A DNA stretch of 32,000 bases from an uncultured Opitutales bacterium (lineage in GTDB: Bacteria; Verrucomicrobiota; Verrucomicrobiia; Opitutales; Intestinicryptomonadaceae), in assembly GCA_934613415.1 (NCBI GenBank), contig CAKTSY010000005.1, positions 60,001 through 92,000 of the forward strand. Reading direction: 5' to 3'. Position numbers and translations under genes: made by a program. The notes beneath the pieces are model-generated. The model had not been told where the DNA came from and searched no databases. It worked only from the letters and a program-made list of their open reading frames with translations. Every line of letters begins with the position of its first letter. Within the stretch, counting starts at the first letter, position 1. Shown piece after piece: positions 1-6,286 of the stretch.

Positions 1-2
1 TA

Positions 3-299
3 ACAAAATCTATACGAGCCGCCCTAGATATTTGCGGCAGACGCCGAGCCCTGCAAAAAGAATATAACCTAAAGCACAACATAACGCCCAAAACGGTTTC
101 GCGCAAAATAGAAGCTTCGCTTGTAAAAGCCGAAAGCAAAAAACCCAACGCCAAGCTAGAAAAAATGGGCGTAAGCGAAAAGGCAGCCCTTATAGAAGAG
201 CTTAAAGCCGAAATGATGAAGGCAGCCCAAGAACTGAAATTCGAAAAGGCGGCCCTTATAAGAGACCAAATAAAGCTCATAAAAAAATCGCAAAAATAG
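3..299 (+). CDS. uvrB: Excinuclease ABC subunit B (UvrB), C-terminal fragment; the 5' end lies outside the window
   Basis: Frame 3 is open from the window edge to TAG at 297-299, and has no start codon so it is absent from the ORF track. My translation reads ...RRRALQKEYNLKHNITPKTVSRKIE...EELKAEMMKAAQELKFEKAALIRDQIKLIKKSQK. This matches the UvrB C-terminal region with the UVR motif (ELxFExAAxxRDxI). Confidence 0.85.
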   Translation, partial: TKSIRAALDICGRRRALQKEYNLKHNITPKTVSRKIEASLVKAESKKPNAKLEKMGVSEKAALIEELKAEMMKAAQELKFEKAALIRDQIKLIKKSQK

Positions 300-339
300 T
301 TCTTGATTTTTAAAAGAAAATCATCTTTTTTATCTGTAA

Positions 340-435
340 ATGGAAAAAACAGCGCACAGCATTAAACAGGAACGACAGACAACAAAGTTTGTTTCGCCCT
401 TCTTTTTTGCCTACTACTATTACTTCAAGAATTAA
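340..435 (+). CDS. Candidate leader peptide, 31 aa: MEKTAHSIKQERQTTKFVSPFFFAYYYYFKN
   Basis: ATG at 340, TAA at 433-435. Codons 400-426 read TTC TTT TTT GCC TAC TAC TAT TAC TTC, so 8 of 9 are Phe or Tyr. An attenuator-like RNA architecture follows immediately. There is no obvious Shine-Dalgarno sequence, but several well-supported genes here also lack one. It is below the 60-aa cutoff of the ORF track. Confidence 0.45.
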   Translation: MEKTAHSIKQERQTTKFVSPFFFAYYYYFKN

Positions 436-517
436 CAAAAGGTTCTCGAACTTAGGCGCATTTTTACACCACAACAATTTTAAAAAGCTCGGGAACAAAA
501 AAGCCCGGGCTTTTTTT
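424..517 (+). promoter_or_regulatory. Candidate transcription attenuator with alternative helices 1:2, 2:3 (antiterminator) and 3:4 (terminator)
   Basis: Pairings were done by hand. Helix 1:2 pairs 424-431 with 443-450 (7/8). Helix 2:3 pairs 442-453 with 485-496 (11/12, one G.U). Helix 3:4 pairs 486-493 with 504-511 (8/8, one G.U) and is followed by T7 at 511-517. Region 1 overlaps the last codons of the mini-ORF. The structure ends 26 nt before the ATG at 544. Confidence 0.5.
486..517 (+). terminator. Intrinsic terminator, the 3:4 helix of the candidate attenuator; also the only terminator-like element after uvrB
   Basis: AGCTCGGG - 10-nt loop - CCCGGGCT, followed by TTTTTTT. Confidence 0.55.
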
Positions 518-543
518 ATATAAAGAAAAACATACAACAAAAA

Positions 544-1542
544 ATGAATACAAAAGCAAAAGCATCTATAGAACAAATCCAACAAAAATGGGTTGGATAT
601 AGGGAAAACCTGAAAGTTCTCGACTGCACAATCCGCGACGGCGGCCTTATGAACGACAGCAATTTCGAAGACGCCATCGTTAAAGTCGTTTACGACACAA
701 TATGCGCAGCAGGCGTAGACTATATGGAATTCGGCTACAAGAATTCCGATAAAATCTACTCGAAAGACAAGTACGGTGCATGGCGCTTTTGCAAGGAAGA
801 CGACATCAAGCGAATTGTGGGCGACAAAGCCCCCAATTCGCCCAAGCTTTGCGCTATGGCAGACGCAGAAAAAAGCGAACGCAAAGACATTCTAAAAAAG
901 AAGGATAGCCCGCTTGATATGATTAGGGTTGCAACCTACATCTACCAAGTGCCCTTGGCGTTGGAAATGATTAAAGACGCACAAGACAAAGGCTACGAAA
1001 CAACGGTAAACCTTATGGCGGTTTCTACCGTAAGGGAACAGGAGCTAGACGACGCCCTTCAGCTTTTGTGCGCAAGCAAGCCCAATGCGATATATTTGGT
1101 AGACAGCTTCGGATCGCTATACGGCGAACAGATTGCGTACCTTCTAAAGAAATACTCTAAATTTGCGAAGCAATACGGAGTTGAAGTTGGCATACATGCC
1201 CACAACAACTTACAGCTGGCGTTTGCAAACACAATAGAAGGCATTATTAGGGGTGCTACTTTGCTAGACGCAACAATTGCTGGATTGGGCCGCGGGGCAG
1301 GCAACTGCCCGTTGGAAGCCCTGCTCGGTTTCCTTCATAACCCAAAATACAACATTCGCCCCGTGCTTGAATGTATAGAAAAACACATAGAGCCTTTAAG
1401 AAAGAAACTTGGCTGGGGCTACGACTACCCGTATATGATTACTGGGTTGTTAAACCGCCACCCGAGAGACGCTATGAAACTTTGCGAAACAGGACATCGC
1501 CATGAAATTGTAGATTTCTACGACTCAATGACAAGCCAATAG
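544..1542 (+). CDS. DRE-TIM metallolyase / HMGL-like (pyruvate carboxyltransferase domain) aldolase, substrate unknown
   Basis: 332-aa ORF with an ATG start. Motifs are LDCTIRDGG (metal-binding Asp) and VGIHAHNNLQLAFANT...AGLGRGAGNCPLE (HxH metal ligands). The pattern is as in the DmpG/MhpE-type and HMG-CoA-lyase-like family. No partner dehydrogenase gene is adjacent. Confidence 0.75.
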   Translation: MNTKAKASIEQIQQKWVGYRENLKVLDCTIRDGGLMNDSNFEDAIVKVVYDTICAAGVDYMEFGYKNSDKIYSKDKYGAWRFCKEDDIKRIVGDKAPNSPKLCAMADAEKSERKDILKKKDSPLDMIRVATYIYQVPLALEMIKDAQDKGYETTVNLMAVSTVREQELDDALQLLCASKPNAIYLVDSFGSLYGEQIAYLLKKYSKFAKQYGVEVGIHAHNNLQLAFANTIEGIIRGATLLDATIAGLGRGAGNCPLEALLGFLHNPKYNIRPVLECIEKHIEPLRKKLGWGYDYPYMITGLLNRHPRDAMKLCETGHRHEIVDFYDSMTSQ

Positions 1543-1552
1543 CAAACACAAA

Positions 1553-1576
1553 GCCCCGCAATTGCGGGGCTTTTTT
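1553..1576. terminator. Intrinsic terminator between convergent genes
   Basis: Perfect palindrome GCCCCGCAATTGCGGGGC followed by TTTTTT. It lies between the aldolase stop (1542) and the stop of the minus-strand GH gene (1602). The T-run is strong only for the + strand. Confidence 0.7.
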
Positions 1577-1601
1577 GCGCATAAAACAAAATTCTTTTAC
1601 T

Positions 1602-3731
1602 CTACTTTGCCAAACGCACATTATACATTTTTTCGCCTATTTGCTTAAAGACATATGTCAATTCGTTTTTCGGCGCATCGCAAATATCCACCAAGCCTAT
1701 GTTGTAGTTTTCGCCGTCGCTTCTGCCGCTAACGGGCTCGTTTGCGTATTGAAACCAGTGCGCCCCCACAATTTGAGGGTTTTTAACCGCACAACTTAGA
1801 TAGTTTTCCAGCATTTTTGCGCAGTCTGCCAACGAAGCTCCTTCTACCAACCCGCCGCCAAAAACCCCGCAGTCGGCGGAACCAAAATGAAATTCGCCGA
1901 TAATTACGGGCTTGTCGGGGCAGTCTTTCGGCAACGCAAAATCCGCCACACTTTTGCGGTATAAATTAAAGCTTACAACGTCGCAATATTTTGCGGCCGA
2001 CATTATAACCGTGTCGTTTACCCATTTAGCATCGTATGCAAAGCGGCAACCCATATATAAAACCTGCGGGTCTTGCGCCTTTATGGCAGTTTTGCAAACT
2101 TCAAAATATTTGTCGTAAAAAATGCTTTCAAACGCCAATAAATCGCTTTGCGAAACCTTTGTTTTCGGCACAAAATCGCGTTCGGATAAAAATTCGTTCC
2201 AATTTTTATAGTTGGCTGCCCACGCCTTGTTCAATGCCGAAATTGCGGCATATTTTTTCTTTAAAAACTCCATAAATGCAATTTTTGCGGGCTGCGTTTT
2301 GGGACACCCTAGCACAGCCTTTGGCAGCAAAAGTTCTTGCGACTGCCAAGGCAGCTCGTTGTCGAAAAACACGCCAAGGCAATAGGGAGATTTCATTAAG
2401 GCGGCATTGTTTTTACATTCGGTTAAAACCGCCTTTTCAAATTCCTTGTCAAAAAAGTCGCGCGGCTTCGACCAATAGCCTGTCAGCTCTGCGTTTGTGT
2501 CTAAAACTGCGCCCGCAGTAGTGGTAAGTATTAAAGCATATGGCATTTTCGCCTTTTGGGCTGTCTCGTAGCAGCTCCACGCGCCAAATGTATTCATATT
2601 CCAAGCCATAAGCCTTTTTCTTGCAACCGCCGCTTTCTTTGCTTTCGAACAATTGCCGTATTTTTTGGCAAAATTTTTGTCGTAAAAATTAAACTCGTCG
2701 TGAGGAGTGGCATATTCGCCCATTCCCCAATGGGCGGTATAAATATATTTTTTGTCGGAAATATCTTCAAAAAATGCTTCCCTATTTTTTATGGGGCTAG
2801 ACACATTAGCCCCTACGCAGTCTACGCCCAACGACCAAAACAAATTGCCTTTGGGTGTTATAAAAAACCATTTTCCGTTTATTTTTTCTGCTCTAAAGTG
2901 TTTCGAATTTCCGTAGTTTTTGCCCTTTATAACGCCAAAAAATTCGTCGAATTTATGCGGACTTTGCGCAATCCATTTAGAATATAAACTGTTTTCGGAG
3001 CTTGCGGCTTGTTTTAGCTGCTTGTCTTCAAAAATCTTACCGTTCCAGTTGCCGTGTTTAAATTGCCCGTATTTATCCACAAAAGGCAAAAATTCGCCGC
3101 TTTGCATTTGCGCCAAATCCATATTATATGCCAAAAAATCGGGGGCGTTGGGCAGCACTTTCATTGCCCGAAAACAATCCGTATTAAGCAAAATGCTGTC
3201 GGTGTCTAGCTTTATGCGGTCTACAGACAAATTATCTATTACTATTTTGGCAGATTCCATAGAAGTTATCGAAACCGTTGCCTTTATAAATTCTTTTGGG
3301 ACTGCAACCGCAACATTTACCGAAAGTTCTTCGTTTTCGGCTGTGCCAAAAACTTTTGTGCAAAGCCTTTTATTTTTGCCGCCCTCTGTTATGCCGTCTA
3401 CAACAAGAAAATTGCAGCCGTTTTTTATCCCCAAATTTTCAACCCTATATTTAAACGAAAATCTGTAGACATAGCCCGACGGCAAACCGTCTTTAAACAT
3501 ATTAACTGCCACAGGCCAGCCGCTTTGCCCAAGCGTGTTTAGCCTAAGCGAAGCGGAACCCTCTATAGCGTTTTTGCCGCCAACTTTCTCCTTTTTAGCG
3601 TTTGCAAAATCGGCACACGCAAACAATTTCGACGTTTTATAGTTTTCGAAGTCATCGAAAAGCACACGCTCTATATTGCCGGCAAAACATACCGCACTTA
3701 CAAAAAGAAACAATGTATAGATAATCTTCAT
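1602..3731 (-). CDS. Secreted clan GH-A type glycoside hydrolase, GH50 (beta-agarase-like) / GH42-like, with an N-terminal beta-sandwich (CBM-like) region
   Basis: 709 aa, ATG at 3731, signal peptide MKIIYTLFLFVSAVCFAG. FFDNELPW (candidate acid/base NE) and VIIGEFHFG (candidate nucleophile E) lie about 155 aa apart. They are followed by HWFQYANEPVSGRSDGENYNIGLVD. The family assignment comes from recalled motifs, not from a search. Confidence 0.6.
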   Translation of the reverse strand: MKIIYTLFLFVSAVCFAGNIERVLFDDFENYKTSKLFACADFANAKKEKVGGKNAIEGSASLRLNTLGQSGWPVAVNMFKDGLPSGYVYRFSFKYRVENLGIKNGCNFLVVDGITEGGKNKRLCTKVFGTAENEELSVNVAVAVPKEFIKATVSITSMESAKIVIDNLSVDRIKLDTDSILLNTDCFRAMKVLPNAPDFLAYNMDLAQMQSGEFLPFVDKYGQFKHGNWNGKIFEDKQLKQAASSENSLYSKWIAQSPHKFDEFFGVIKGKNYGNSKHFRAEKINGKWFFITPKGNLFWSLGVDCVGANVSSPIKNREAFFEDISDKKYIYTAHWGMGEYATPHDEFNFYDKNFAKKYGNCSKAKKAAVARKRLMAWNMNTFGAWSCYETAQKAKMPYALILTTTAGAVLDTNAELTGYWSKPRDFFDKEFEKAVLTECKNNAALMKSPYCLGVFFDNELPWQSQELLLPKAVLGCPKTQPAKIAFMEFLKKKYAAISALNKAWAANYKNWNEFLSERDFVPKTKVSQSDLLAFESIFYDKYFEVCKTAIKAQDPQVLYMGCRFAYDAKWVNDTVIMSAAKYCDVVSFNLYRKSVADFALPKDCPDKPVIIGEFHFGSADCGVFGGGLVEGASLADCAKMLENYLSCAVKNPQIVGAHWFQYANEPVSGRSDGENYNIGLVDICDAPKNELTYVFKQIGEKMYNVRLAK

Positions 3732-4032
3732 TTGCGCTTAAAACTAATAATTAAAAACAGCAAATGCAAAGCCAAAATTTGTAAGACTAAAAATGCCTGC
3801 GTTTTAATGGTTAATATCTGCCATACATTGTCTTACAACAAAACTCACAAAATAAATGCACCATACAAAGCACAAATTAAACATAAAAACAAAATGCTAC
3901 AAACGCACAAAAACACTCGCTATAAAAAAACAATCTTTCCTAAAATTTCAAAAAAAACATTACACAACAAGCACACGACCTAAAAAAAACAAACAACCTA
4001 CTAACATATAGCAGAACCCCTACCCATCATAC

Positions 4033-4089
4033 CGTATACCTCCCCCTAAGAAAGTCTATAAACTAAACGTACAATACCCCCCTAAGAAA
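4033..4089. repeat. Two ~21-nt imperfect direct repeats (CGTAyA..CCCCCTAAGAAA) inside a G-poor spacer
   Basis: CGTATACCTCCCCCTAAGAAA at 4033-4053 and CGTACAATACCCCCCTAAGAAA at 4068-4089. The shared core CCCCCTAAGAAA is at 4042-4053 and 4078-4089. On the minus strand they read TTTCTTAGGGGG, which is SD-like. Confidence 0.6.
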
Positions 4090-4128
4090 AACAATGCACG
4101 CCAAAAATCCACGCATTCATATAGGCAA

Positions 4129-4161
4129 CAAAAAAGCCCGATTTTTCAATCGGGCTTTTTT
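4129..4161 (-). terminator. Intrinsic, structurally bidirectional terminator downstream of the porin-like gene
   Basis: A-run, then GCCCGATT - TTTC - AATCGGGC, then TTTTTT. It lies 20 nt beyond the stop of the 4181-5368 minus-strand CDS. Confidence 0.8.
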
Positions 4162-4180
4162 GCGAAGTGTTTCTTTTAAA

Positions 4181-5368
4181 TTAGTATTTAACCGAAACGT
4201 CCAACGATACCAAGTGGCGGTTGTATGTTGCTGCCGCTACCGAAGAAGAGTTCATATAGTAGCTGTAGTTTGCGCCAACTGTGATGTATTTGCAGGGAGT
4301 GTATGTCAAGCCCATGCTTAGAGAATATTCGTCGTCTGTACGATCGCCATACGATTCATACTTCGAGTTTTCGTATCTTAACGAAGCATTTGCCGAAACA
4401 AATTCGGTTATTGCGTAGCGAGAACCCAAAACAACACCTGTGTTTACAATGTTCTGACGAGATGCACCGCTGTTGTAGTCTCTGTAGAAGTCGAGAGTTG
4501 CTACCAACTTTTCGGTTGCCTGATATGCCAAGTTGGCATTCATTGTAAAGTTCCAGTCGCTCGAATTGTCGGCAATAACAGCATTGTCCAACTGGCGGTG
4601 AGTTGCGCCAAAGTATAGGGAACCTATCAACTTTTCAAAGATTTCGCCGCGAACGTTTACACCGATAAAGTGGTCGTCACGAGCGTCGCCATACATAGCC
4701 GACCAAGGATCGCCACCCGAAAATGTTGTTCTACGATATTGGTAGGAAAGACCTGCATTGATCTTTTCGGTTACCTGATAGAGAATGTTCAAGGGAACGG
4801 AAATGCAGTTGTTGTCGGAATAGATGTTAGAGTATTCAAGGAAGTGCTGACGATAGTACCTGATGGACAATTCGCCGGTAATTTTGTCGGTGAACAAGTA
4901 GGTGTTCATTAAGCCGGCATTGTAGGTATCGTAGCGAACCTGGTCGCCAGGATTTCCACCCGCGCCCAACATGGTAGAGTTGTTTTGTTGCAACTGACTG
5001 TACGAGAAGTCTGCATCGCCACGGTAGCGTTCGTCTACATAGCTAACTTTTGCGATTACGTTTGCCAACTCGTTGTTCAAGTGCGACAAATTCGAATAGC
5101 GGTTGATGTCTTCAAAGAACTTTATGTTAGCCTTAACCTTGCTGTTCTTGCCGTAGTCTAATTCGGCACCCAAGCGAACAGTCAAAATATAGTCGTCTAC
5201 CTTGGGGCTGCTTGCAGCACCTGTGCCGAGATATACGTTGCTATCCCACTTGCCGATTACTGCGCCTTTGAAAAAGACGTCTACTTCATCGCCGATAGTT
5301 ACGAGAGGAGCCGCATTTGCGGACGCCGCCAAGCCTAATACGGCCATATACATTGCTATTTTTTTCAT
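4181..5368 (-). CDS. Outer-membrane beta-barrel protein (porin-like)
   Basis: 395 aa with signal peptide MKKIAMYMAVLGLAASANA. It shows alternating hydrophobic beta-strand periodicity with Y/G/N/D-rich turns, and the C-terminus ...HLVSLDVSVKY ends in an aromatic residue. An SD-like AAGGGA lies 9 nt upstream of the ATG. Codon usage looks like that of a highly expressed gene. Confidence 0.7.
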   Translation of the reverse strand: MKKIAMYMAVLGLAASANAAPLVTIGDEVDVFFKGAVIGKWDSNVYLGTGAASSPKVDDYILTVRLGAELDYGKNSKVKANIKFFEDINRYSNLSHLNNELANVIAKVSYVDERYRGDADFSYSQLQQNNSTMLGAGGNPGDQVRYDTYNAGLMNTYLFTDKITGELSIRYYRQHFLEYSNIYSDNNCISVPLNILYQVTEKINAGLSYQYRRTTFSGGDPWSAMYGDARDDHFIGVNVRGEIFEKLIGSLYFGATHRQLDNAVIADNSSDWNFTMNANLAYQATEKLVATLDFYRDYNSGASRQNIVNTGVVLGSRYAITEFVSANASLRYENSKYESYGDRTDDEYSLSMGLTYTPCKYITVGANYSYYMNSSSVAAATYNRHLVSLDVSVKY

Positions 5369-5485
5369 TCGATAATTCCCTTTAAGGTTATTGTTATTAT
5401 GAAATTTGTTGATAAAAGTGTTGTTAAAGCTTTGTTAAATCGGCAGTTATTGTCTTATTTTTTAGACCGTATTGTCAAGCGAAAT

Positions 5486-6286
5486 TTAAACTTTTATGCA
5501 TTTTACCGCATTTGCCTTGCAAACATAGTCTATATCCGAATCGTCTAAAATCATAAATGCGGTAGAAAATGCATCGGCCAAAAAGCCCGAAGAAGCCACT
5601 GCATATATAAATTCGGCGTCTTTTTTCGGAGCACAACCCGCCAAGGGGTCTATAATATGGTGCCCTTGCACCCTAATTCCCGAACCCGCCAAAGCTTGGC
5701 CGTCTTTTAAAACAAAGTTTTTGTCTTCGCTGTTTAAAAGAACTTTCCAGCCGTCCAACCCTTCGCAAGCCCCTATTGCCAGCATTGTGCTAGAGCCAAA
5801 ATCTATAAGCGCGTTTTCTATAGACCACTCGTCTTTTAAAAGTTCTGCAATTTTATCTACCGCATAGCCTTTGCCCACCGCGCCAAAATCCAAACAGCCC
5901 TCGCTTGTTTTTTGGGCAATAAAATTATAGTCGTCTATCTTAAGGGTAATTCTGGAAGGTTTCGCGTATTTCGTCTGGTTTTTTGCGTTTGTAAAAAATT
6001 GCCCCATACAAACATCTACTGCCCCCAAAGTTTTTTCGTATACTTGCCCCGAAAGCGCGAGGCATTCGGTGGAATATTCGCCCAACCTAACATAGTCGCC
6101 AACTTTTGCGTTGTTTATCGCGTAAATATCGGAGCCTGCCTTATACATACTAATTTGCTCTTCTATGCGCTCGGCCAAAAAGAATGCGGCTTGCGCCGCG
6201 CTTTCGGCATATTTGTGCGAATCTGCGCAAATAGTCAAAACCAAACTGGTATTCATTAAATCTTTGTCGAAATTATAGGAAGGCAT
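5486..6286 (-). CDS. apbE: FAD:protein FMN transferase (ApbE family), with no signal peptide
   Basis: 266 aa. ApbE motifs are LDFGAVGKGYAVDK, LAGSGIRVQGHHIIDPLAG and ADAFSTAFMIL. An in-frame stop (6290-6292) lies one codon upstream of the ATG, so no N-terminal extension is possible. Confidence 0.8.
   Translation of the reverse strand: MPSYNFDKDLMNTSLVLTICADSHKYAESAAQAAFFLAERIEEQISMYKAGSDIYAINNAKVGDYVRLGEYSTECLALSGQVYEKTLGAVDVCMGQFFTNAKNQTKYAKPSRITLKIDDYNFIAQKTSEGCLDFGAVGKGYAVDKIAELLKDEWSIENALIDFGSSTMLAIGACEGLDGWKVLLNSEDKNFVLKDGQALAGSGIRVQGHHIIDPLAGCAPKKDAEFIYAVASSGFLADAFSTAFMILDDSDIDYVCKANAVKCIKV

Follow-up and report, generated by a model that had tools for sequence, protein, structure and literature searches.

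The window analyzed here is a stretch of 32,000 nucleotides (nt) of human-gut Opitutales (Verrucomicrobiota) DNA (contig CAKTSY010000005.1, positions 60,001 to 92,000). The subject of this analysis is the segment between its uvrB gene and a gene for a putative aldolase, where a short open reading frame (ORF) with a dense run of Tyr and Phe codons is followed by a hairpin terminator, in the layout of a predicted leader-peptide attenuator. An aldolase 98% identical to that of the window is encoded at locus L001, which comes from a metagenome-assembled genome (MAG) of the Hadza gut. The features of the locus, in window coordinates, are the following.

stop at 299: 3' end of uvrB, the gene upstream of the leader (Pfam UvrB and UVR matches)
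303..333, + strand: promoter-like region, inferred by eye, with TTGATT (303-308) followed, 16-19 nt on, by a poor, T-rich -10-like hexamer (325-333)
340..435, + strand: leader peptide mini-ORF of 31 codons, MEKTAHSIKQERQTTKFVSPFFFAYYYYFKN and stop, with orthologous Tyr/Phe-run ORFs in nine lineages
400..426, + strand: regulatory codon run FFFAYYYYF, eight of nine codons Phe or Tyr, with the Tyr codons TAC TAC TAT TAC at 412-423
424..433, + strand: region 1, the last ORF codons, 5' arm of a weak 1:2 hairpin (folding)
441..466, + strand: region 2, antiterminator strand, with the core GGUUCUCGA at 441-449 and GCGCAUUUUU at 457-466 (folding)
482..496, + strand: region 3, terminator 5' arm and antiterminator 3' strand (folding)
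504..517, + strand: region 4, terminator 3' arm (504-515) and T7 run (511-517) (folding)
544..1542, + strand: putatively regulated gene for a 332-amino acid (aa) DRE-TIM / HMGL-like metallolyase (putative aldolase), with an RDGGL motif and a HAHNN metal site (sequence matches)
1550..1573, no strand assigned: hairpin terminator common to the aldolase and the convergent GH42-like gene, which closes a one-gene unit (terminator scan)
1602-3731, minus strand: GH42-like gene, convergent with the aldolase

The original prediction, made from the DNA letters, had placed the mini-ORF at 340-435 and its eight Phe or Tyr codons out of nine at 400-426, which is where they lie; the encoded peptide ends in FFFAYYYYFKN. 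Across all six frames of the window there is a single run with at least eight Phe or Tyr residues in nine codons, compared with 0.015 such runs expected per dinucleotide shuffle (3 of 200 shuffles had one). The transcript start implied by the promoter-like region would fall only a few nt before the ATG of the mini-ORF, and the leader mRNA of the window would be almost leaderless, with a very short A/U-rich 5' untranslated region (UTR).

The terminator helix 3:4 pairs AAAAAGCUCGGG (482-493) with CCCGGGCUUUUU (504-515) across a 10-nt loop at -16.5 kcal/mol, appears in both the minimum free energy and the centroid folds, and its T-run ends 26 nt before the aldolase ATG at 544. A simple terminator scan did not report this hairpin (482-517) because the loop limit of the scan is only 8 nt. 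The competing helix 2:3 joins 442-449 to 489-496 (8 base pairs, one of them G-U), is extended by the pairing of 458-466 with 482-488 and amounts to -10.0 kcal/mol; the register of the original prediction, 442-453 with 485-496, yields, when counted by hand, 10 Watson-Crick pairs, one G-U pair and one mismatch. Helix 1:2 brings together 424-433 and 441-450 at -4.1 kcal/mol. The alternative structures have been folded and all three helices, as well as the T7 run 26 nt before the ATG, are found at the coordinates proposed for them, and the region 300-545 as a whole folds better than 200 of 200 shuffles (z = -3.55).

Orthologous aldolase genes were examined at 160 loci from genome and metagenome collections, and the closest relatives were then fetched protein by protein. 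Nine aldolase lineages, with 63-98% identity to the window aldolase, share the leader layout: a promoter-like motif comes first, then an ORF of 17-39 codons that opens with ATG, then a GC hairpin with a U-run and finally the aldolase. In these lineages, the hairpin and U-run end 60-83 nt after the leader stop codon, the aldolase lies 21-125 nt beyond, and a motif resembling TTGmnn-N16-(T/C)CTAAT, recognized by eye, is located 9-21 nt 5' of the leader ATG in all nine. The leader peptides, by locus, are listed below.

L001: ..FFFAYYYYFKN
L162: ..AYYFGDFYYSYFMK
L003: MASIFNSFYYYFTGVTS
L002: MQKTGLYYVYYFSYLLGVR
L166: MTKFFTSYYYYALLGVR
L170: MTTNFAGYYYYFTSLGVR
L171: MQNIFSSYYYYFFYELLDVR
L178: MQNFSAAYYFYFSFPNKGVR
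L181: MQNNWATYYFYFSFPNHSVR

The cluster of Tyr and Phe is the sole feature common to all these peptides, with 3-5 Tyr and 1-5 Phe residues per leader; Trp is represented by a single residue among all of them, in one leader. The Tyr codons TAT and TAC alternate, so that it is the meaning of the codons that is conserved and not the RNA sequence. Judged by these peptides, the regulatory residue that stays constant is Tyr, with Phe in second place, which refines the original prediction. Between window 358-389 and L001 2814-2845, there are 13 substitutions within leader codons 7-16, with the frame intact, and from codon 17 to the U-run the two are identical except for the terminator loop, in genomes that are otherwise near-identical.

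The prediction hinged on orthologous leaders keeping the Phe/Tyr-rich ORF, and they do so, together with the terminator, in the nine aldolase lineages and behind three different upstream genes (uvrB, carA or SMC); because the gene 5' of the leader differs, the leader unit can be said to travel with the aldolase. At locus L170, carA has a terminator of its own, after which the promoter-like motif precedes the leader. When such peptides were sought at the remaining 157 loci from both collection scans, two chance matches came up, neither of them with a T-run. The aromatic-run mini-ORFs of L012 and L093, which lie inside longer ORFs and lack a T-run, were rejected as chance. A scan of JGI metagenomes added no leader, and none of the relatives that it recovered exceeded 63% identity.

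In the 9-sequence alignment of the leaders (A1), 92.9% of the terminator cells are paired and 6 pairs have changed on both sides, a combination reached by 0-1 of 500 shuffles; RNAalifold recovers the terminator from the same alignment independently. The antiterminator register is 97.2% paired among 8 distinct relatives, compared with 17-51% in slid registers. A group of leaders with the C-terminal residues GVR shares the region 2 sequence GGYGUUCGG, which pairs with CCGRAYGYC of the terminator arm, and in most of the relatives region 2 lies within the last three sense codons of the ORF plus the stop codon. RNAalifold also predicts a small hairpin that spans the stop codon of the leader (GGYGUU and AGYRGY around the loop CGGUA; A1 columns 35-51, e.g. 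L170 1305-1320); two of its pairs covary, and it could serve for pausing or as an anti-antiterminator. The idea of a 1:2 helix conserved among the GVR-type leaders was considered and rejected: several alternative local hairpins are possible, and RNAalifold backs only the one at the stop codon.

The dependence of these structures on the ribosome was modeled by truncating the leaders just before the 3' arm of the terminator, which corresponds to the moment of decision, forcing a 29-nt ribosome footprint to be single-stranded and folding the remainder at equilibrium. This footprint-masking test was used in place of a plain comparison of 2:3 duplex energies. For the window leader, the GC core of the terminator 5' arm has a probability of 0.11 of being paired upstream when no ribosome is present; the value is 0.89 if a Tyr codon occupies the A site and 0.12 if the stop codon does. 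This switch pattern recurs in L003, L002, L166, L170 and L171, so that six of the nine leaders behave in this way. In these six, the switch score (the probability under stall minus the larger of the other two, i.e. no ribosome and stop codon) is 0.68-0.88, a level that, for each leader, 0-1 of 150 dinucleotide-shuffled versions of the pre-terminator sequence attain. When the A site is slid along the ORF of the window, stalls at Y25-K30 bring the probability of the antiterminator to 0.8-0.9, and the Tyr/Phe run occupies the last ORF positions where a stall does not yet cover region 2. The alternative structures of most leaders respond to the position of the ribosome as the classical model demands.

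Given this anatomy, which is conserved across lineages and switches in silico, the element is likely to be a ribosome-mediated transcription attenuator that reads the charging of tRNA-Tyr (and tRNA-Phe). Under the classical scheme, transcription would start just 5' of position 340, and the 31-codon leader would be translated as the RNA polymerase advances, with translation and transcription coupled. When charged tRNA-Tyr and tRNA-Phe are plentiful, the ribosome would reach the stop codon at 433-435 and its footprint would cover the start of region 2 (441-449); with region 2 masked, region 3 (482-496) would pair with region 4 (504-515), and the hairpin with its U7 would end transcription 26 nt short of the aldolase start codon. 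Under a shortage of charged tRNA-Tyr or tRNA-Phe, the ribosome would stall at the codons in 412-426 and cover region 1; region 2, left exposed, would pair with region 3 ahead of the synthesis of region 4, so that the terminator would not form and the aldolase mRNA would be completed, which would constitute the response to starvation.

The protein controlled by this element matches the Pfam HMGL-like family (PF00682) with 76.3 bits against a gathering threshold of 29, and the Asp and His-x-His metal ligands are present, with D32 in RDGG and H199-A-H201 aligned to the ligands of DmpG. On these sequence features, the DRE-TIM aldolase call of the original prediction is upheld, and the window protein is assigned to the DRE-TIM metallolyase superfamily; the fold is taken as fixed because of the sequence matches to solved DRE-TIM aldolases. 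A more specific identity as a DmpG-type 4-hydroxy-2-oxovalerate aldolase was rejected. The match to the corresponding NCBIfam equivalog (TIGR03217) is 106.8 bits where the cutoff demands 286, the window protein has Leu (RDGGL) in place of the catalytic His that follows RDGS (His21 of DmpG), only the HMGL-like domain was found, with no DmpG communication domain, and there is no partner acylating aldehyde dehydrogenase gene nearby. The Leu of RDGGL is conserved across the orthologues. Homology to the AroF/G/H or AroA(G) synthases of DAHP (the 7-phosphate of 3-deoxy-D-arabino-heptulosonate) was not detected either, the Pfam and NCBIfam matches being to DRE-TIM families only.

The representative library contains 504 matches to this family with E of 1e-30 or better, and the scan of genome collections gave at least 569 matches for the RDGGL-type aldolase. 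In the public databases, family members are named 'aldolase catalytic domain-containing protein' or, wrongly, '4-hydroxy 2-oxovalerate aldolase', and P0403, P0409, P0418, P0458, P0499 and P0503 are labeled 'nucleoid-structuring protein H-NS' in several sources, an evident propagated misannotation. A public gene call of the window aldolase itself (P0001; window 406-1542) is 378 aa long, with 46 additional N-terminal residues that would require reading through the leader and the terminator T-run; this call is probably a homopolymer-length variant or a gene-caller artifact because the frame in the window stops at 521-523. Three loci carry tandem aldolase genes behind one leader (L002 1925-3951, L178 1201-3248 and L181 1201-3270). 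The two genes of L002 are a recent pair with 91% identity, and the second aldolase of L178 and L181 is a divergent paralogue, which has RDGGA where the window protein has RDGGL and is only 48-54% identical to it. Among the other genes of the 32-kb window, there is no aromatic-pathway gene and no second Tyr/Phe leader.

The genomic neighborhood of the orthologues in other phyla bears on the function of the enzyme. In 33 of the 84 Firmicute loci, nearly all from Lachnospiraceae or other Clostridia, a Pfam-confirmed tyrS gene lies 3-160 nt 5' of the aldolase on the same strand. The gap between the two genes lacks a T5 run in 30 of the 33, and the folding of the 13 gaps of at least 60 nt revealed no hairpin-plus-U terminator. 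A T-box motif is located 5' of tyrS in 30 of the 33 loci; of the 20 loci scanned with Rfam, 8 have a confirmed T-box, all in Lachnospiraceae, and the specifier of the T-box in L031 is UAC (Tyr). This arrangement may represent a single ancestral event. In 18 of these loci, the chorismate synthase gene (aroC) is convergent, just 3' of the aldolase, and in L054, the EPSP synthase gene (aroA) is directly 5' of it. A search of every representative protein yielded a singleton ORF of 1058 aa, P0245, in which a TrpE(G)-type anthranilate synthase is fused to an RDGGL-type aldolase domain. The nearest relatives of either half that exist as separate proteins appear to share contigs, P0140 and P0278 each being on one 8,088-nt contig and P0391 and P0281 each on one 16,193-nt contig, with the same sources, from which we infer that trpE(G) and the aldolase are co-located on these contigs.

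More distant members (P0227, P0270, P0146 and P0159; 33-40% identity) are fused to a HAD phosphatase and a CMP-sugar-type cytidylyltransferase (CTP_transf_3), or to an MptE-like domain, the MptE-like matches being weak and below the Pfam cut-off. Phosphatases of the HAD type and cytidylyltransferases are the usual company of enzymes that make 3-deoxy-2-ulosonic acids, and these fusions suggest that some family members produce CMP-activated sugars of the 3-deoxy-ulosonic or nonulosonic kind.

The original prediction had implicated the aldolase in aromatic amino acid supply, and the operons of a Tyr T-box, tyrS and the aldolase, the aroA and aroC neighbors and the one trpE(G)-aldolase fusion all speak for such a role. 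On the basis of regulation and gene neighborhood, this role is favored with moderate confidence. Because the links of the enzyme vary with the lineage (Tyr and Phe, Tyr alone, the common-pathway genes aroA and aroC, or trpE(G)), the step in question would be one before chorismate. The only pre-chorismate step that chemically fits a metal-dependent pyruvate aldolase is the formation of 3-deoxy-D-arabino-heptulosonate or its 7-phosphate, DAH(P), from erythrose-4-phosphate. That this DRE-TIM pyruvate-dependent aldolase makes DAH(P) from erythrose-4-phosphate, as a non-homologous shikimate entry enzyme or isozyme, is put forward as a tentative candidate role and a rather unlikely one. An evolved KDPGal aldolase reportedly made this reaction support the growth of E. 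coli in the work of Frost and co-workers.

Several observations weigh against the attenuator or against the aromatic role. In the window, a sigma-70 consensus scan found no promoter on the + strand, the -10 element is poor and the promoter was recognized by eye, so that the promoter part of the layout is putative; no Shine-Dalgarno sequence precedes the mini-ORF and its 5' UTR would be very short, which makes the translation of the mini-ORF an assumption. The organism itself is known only as a MAG. Helix 1:2 is weak; it is probably dispensable because the terminating ribosome itself masks region 2. The compensatory changes expected in the helices are borne out for the terminator; the antiterminator keeps its register but displays one double compensatory change only, its variation being mostly absorbed by G-U wobble, and its pair-count measures were not significant in the shuffle control. 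The plain duplex-energy test of helix 2:3 against shuffles gave a modest combined p = 0.02, with region 2 of L002 partly clipped, and three of the nine leaders (L162, L178 and L181) exhibit no clean switch in the equilibrium model. As for the neighborhood, thrS takes the place of tyrS directly 5' of the aldolase in two Clostridia loci (L049 1025-2929 and L152 491-2395), with a T-box motif about 2.07 kb 5' of the aldolase. In Latescibacterota (L013-L019, positions ~1600-6100; ~61% identity), the gene is flanked by an MR/MLE-type enolase-superfamily gene and, in some loci, a class-III aminotransferase gene, a context more suggestive of sugar-acid or amino-sugar metabolism than of aromatic biosynthesis.

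To these points is added the absence of the leader from five close relatives (L161, L164/L165, L168, L169 and L175-L177), which implies that the regulation is dispensable. In L164 (3850-4000), carA is fused in frame to the C-terminal codons of the leader (...LVQKTLGVR and stop), and in L175-L177 (1075-1200), GCGTTCGG directly follows the carA stop codon. In the leaderless carA lineages, carA now ends at what was the terminator of the attenuator; L164 and L165 have a new promoter-like motif, TGCTTGAAAC, 3' of this old terminator and before the aldolase. The remnants in L164/L165 and L175-L177 look like the decay of an attenuator by deletion.

Such reuse of the terminator fits an alternative in which the hairpin at 482-517 does no more than terminate uvrB, the mini-ORF is open by mere chance within an A/T-rich spacer, and the aldolase is transcribed from a separate promoter that went unrecognized; moreover, the only other structure after uvrB is an all-A/U hairpin (304-323, -4.8 kcal/mol), and there is no other convincing terminator. 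Almost no credence can be given to this explanation, however, when the ORF and terminator accompany the aldolase behind three different upstream genes, carA of L170 is terminated before the leader promoter is reached, the Tyr/Phe run is conserved and the remaining peptide is not, the 26 nt from the T-run to the ATG lack a -35/-10 match, and a codon run of this kind is expected by chance 0.015 times per window. The conservation of an ATG-started ORF with its frame kept, and the existence of other short aromatic-rich peptides, would also agree with a functional product, such as a membrane micro-protein or the precursor of a modified peptide, with the terminator setting an mRNA ratio and no sensing of tRNA charge. 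This is highly improbable: beyond the Tyr/Phe run, there is no conservation across the two leader types, the conserved C-terminal GVR and stop coincide with the GGYGUUCGG strand that pairs with the terminator arm, no gene for a modifying enzyme or transporter accompanies the leader in the loci examined, and the predicted structure flips with the position of the ribosome.

That flip depends on where the ribosome stalls and not on why, which leaves room for a sensor of the TnaC kind, in which arrest by the nascent peptide and a ligand, namely an excess of free tyrosine, would induce a catabolic aldolase; the most similar DRE-TIM group, the DmpG/BphI/HsaF 4-hydroxy-2-oxovalerate aldolases, is indeed known to be catabolic. 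This explanation is highly improbable, given that known arrest peptides need specific single residues whereas tandem cognate codons are the established hallmark of charge sensing (trpL, pheL, hisL), that the Lachnospiraceae gene belongs to an operon opened by uncharged tRNA-Tyr via a T-box, which is a starvation logic, and that the neighbors aroA, aroC and trpE(G) are biosynthetic. Finally, the UAY/UUY repeats or the fold of the leader might be recognized in trans by an RNA-binding protein or by a small ligand, in the manner of TRAP, PyrR or a riboswitch; TRAP and HutP are known to bind triplet repeats, and the lack of an Rfam match is compatible with a new class. The contiguous triplets number only 3-5, though, every leader lineage retains the ATG, an uninterrupted frame and a stop codon that falls at or inside region 2, and there is no aptamer-like conserved structure beyond the two helices, so that the likelihood of such recognition is very remote. 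The attenuator that reads tRNA-Tyr and tRNA-Phe charging is the explanation favored here.

The mechanism of attenuation is textbook; what is new, judged by the literature searched, is a leader dominated by Tyr codons, its occurrence in the phylum Verrucomicrobiota and an uncharacterized target. The literature search found no tyrosine-codon leader peptide and no amino acid leader attenuation in Verrucomicrobia, nor anything relevant on tyrS-aldolase operons, on BVU_2661/3DXI or on DRE-TIM enzymes in connection with tyrosine. As far as this literature goes, the element is the first of its kind to be predicted in Verrucomicrobiota. The uncharacterized target matters most: a charge-sensing leader amounts to an evolutionary label that reads 'make this enzyme when Tyr or Phe is short', and the Lachnospiraceae orthologue carries this label too, there written as a Tyr T-box operon. 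An orphan enzyme thus becomes a testable candidate for a missing or alternative step of aromatic amino acid supply in gut anaerobes. Were the DAH(P) reading true, this would be a non-homologous shikimate entry enzyme that is widespread in anaerobes of several phyla and that is controlled, depending on the lineage, by a Tyr/Phe leader, a Tyr T-box operon or fusion to anthranilate synthase.

Among the characterized relatives of the enzyme, the DmpG/BphI/HsaF aldolases are the best matches (E of 1e-19 to 1e-21) and share the DRE-TIM fold and the Asp/His/His metal site. The closest solved structure is PDB 3DXI (E of 1e-34), a putative aldolase (BVU_2661) of Bacteroides vulgatus from structural genomics, which also has the C-terminal WG..PYM..G region; it is distant compared with the orthologues collected here (1e-111 to 1e-160) and has RDGGY in place of the RDGGL of the window protein. 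In functional terms, there is a parallel with the Tyr/Phe-controlled DAHP synthases (E. coli aroF and aroG under TyrR), which are induced by a shortage of Tyr or Phe but not of Trp. An aldolase that joins pyruvate to an aldose would yield a 3-deoxy-2-ulosonic acid, the class to which the product of DAHP synthase belongs. Unlike AroF/G/H, to which it is not homologous, the window protein would be controlled by attenuation and not by a repressor, and the shared activity is hypothetical.

Comparison with RNA models gave sub-threshold scores only. Phe_leader (RF01859) scores 23.2 bits at 427-519 against a gathering threshold of 55, with Thr_leader at 21.5 and Termite-leu at 20.3, also below threshold, and no Rfam family reaches threshold in window 1-2000 or in the 20 Verrucomicrobial and other loci. 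The weak Phe_leader, Leu_leader, Thr_leader, rimP and Termite-leu matches cluster on both terminators (403-528 and 1544-1662); because the same matches appear at the unrelated 1550-1573 terminator, these models evidently score generic terminator hairpins and provide no family evidence.

The classical leader-peptide attenuators are those of pheL, trpL, hisL, leuL and thrL, and pheL has a tandem run of cognate codons. With E. coli pheL-pheA, the window element shares a short ORF with tandem cognate codons, a terminator just before the structural gene, mutually exclusive 2:3 and 3:4 helices, and a stop codon positioned so that the terminating ribosome would mask region 2. It differs in the dominance of Tyr over Phe, in the weakness of helix 1:2, in a region 2 that in most of the relatives consists of the last three sense codons and the stop codon, in its host, which belongs to Verrucomicrobiota (Opitutales) and not to Proteobacteria, and in its target, a DRE-TIM enzyme and not pheA. 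The T-box (Tyr) leader of Firmicute tyrS resembles it in sensing uncharged tRNA-Tyr through a choice between terminator and antiterminator and, in Lachnospiraceae, governs the operon of the orthologous aldolase; the T-box model (RF00230) matches only Lachnospiraceae loci, with no match in the window or in the 20 Verrucomicrobial and other loci, and a T-box binds the tRNA directly, with no ORF. According to a comparative review, tyrosine is controlled by T-boxes and phenylalanine by attenuators (PMC1262725), and tyrosine pathways are otherwise placed under TyrR or T-boxes (PMC1262725).

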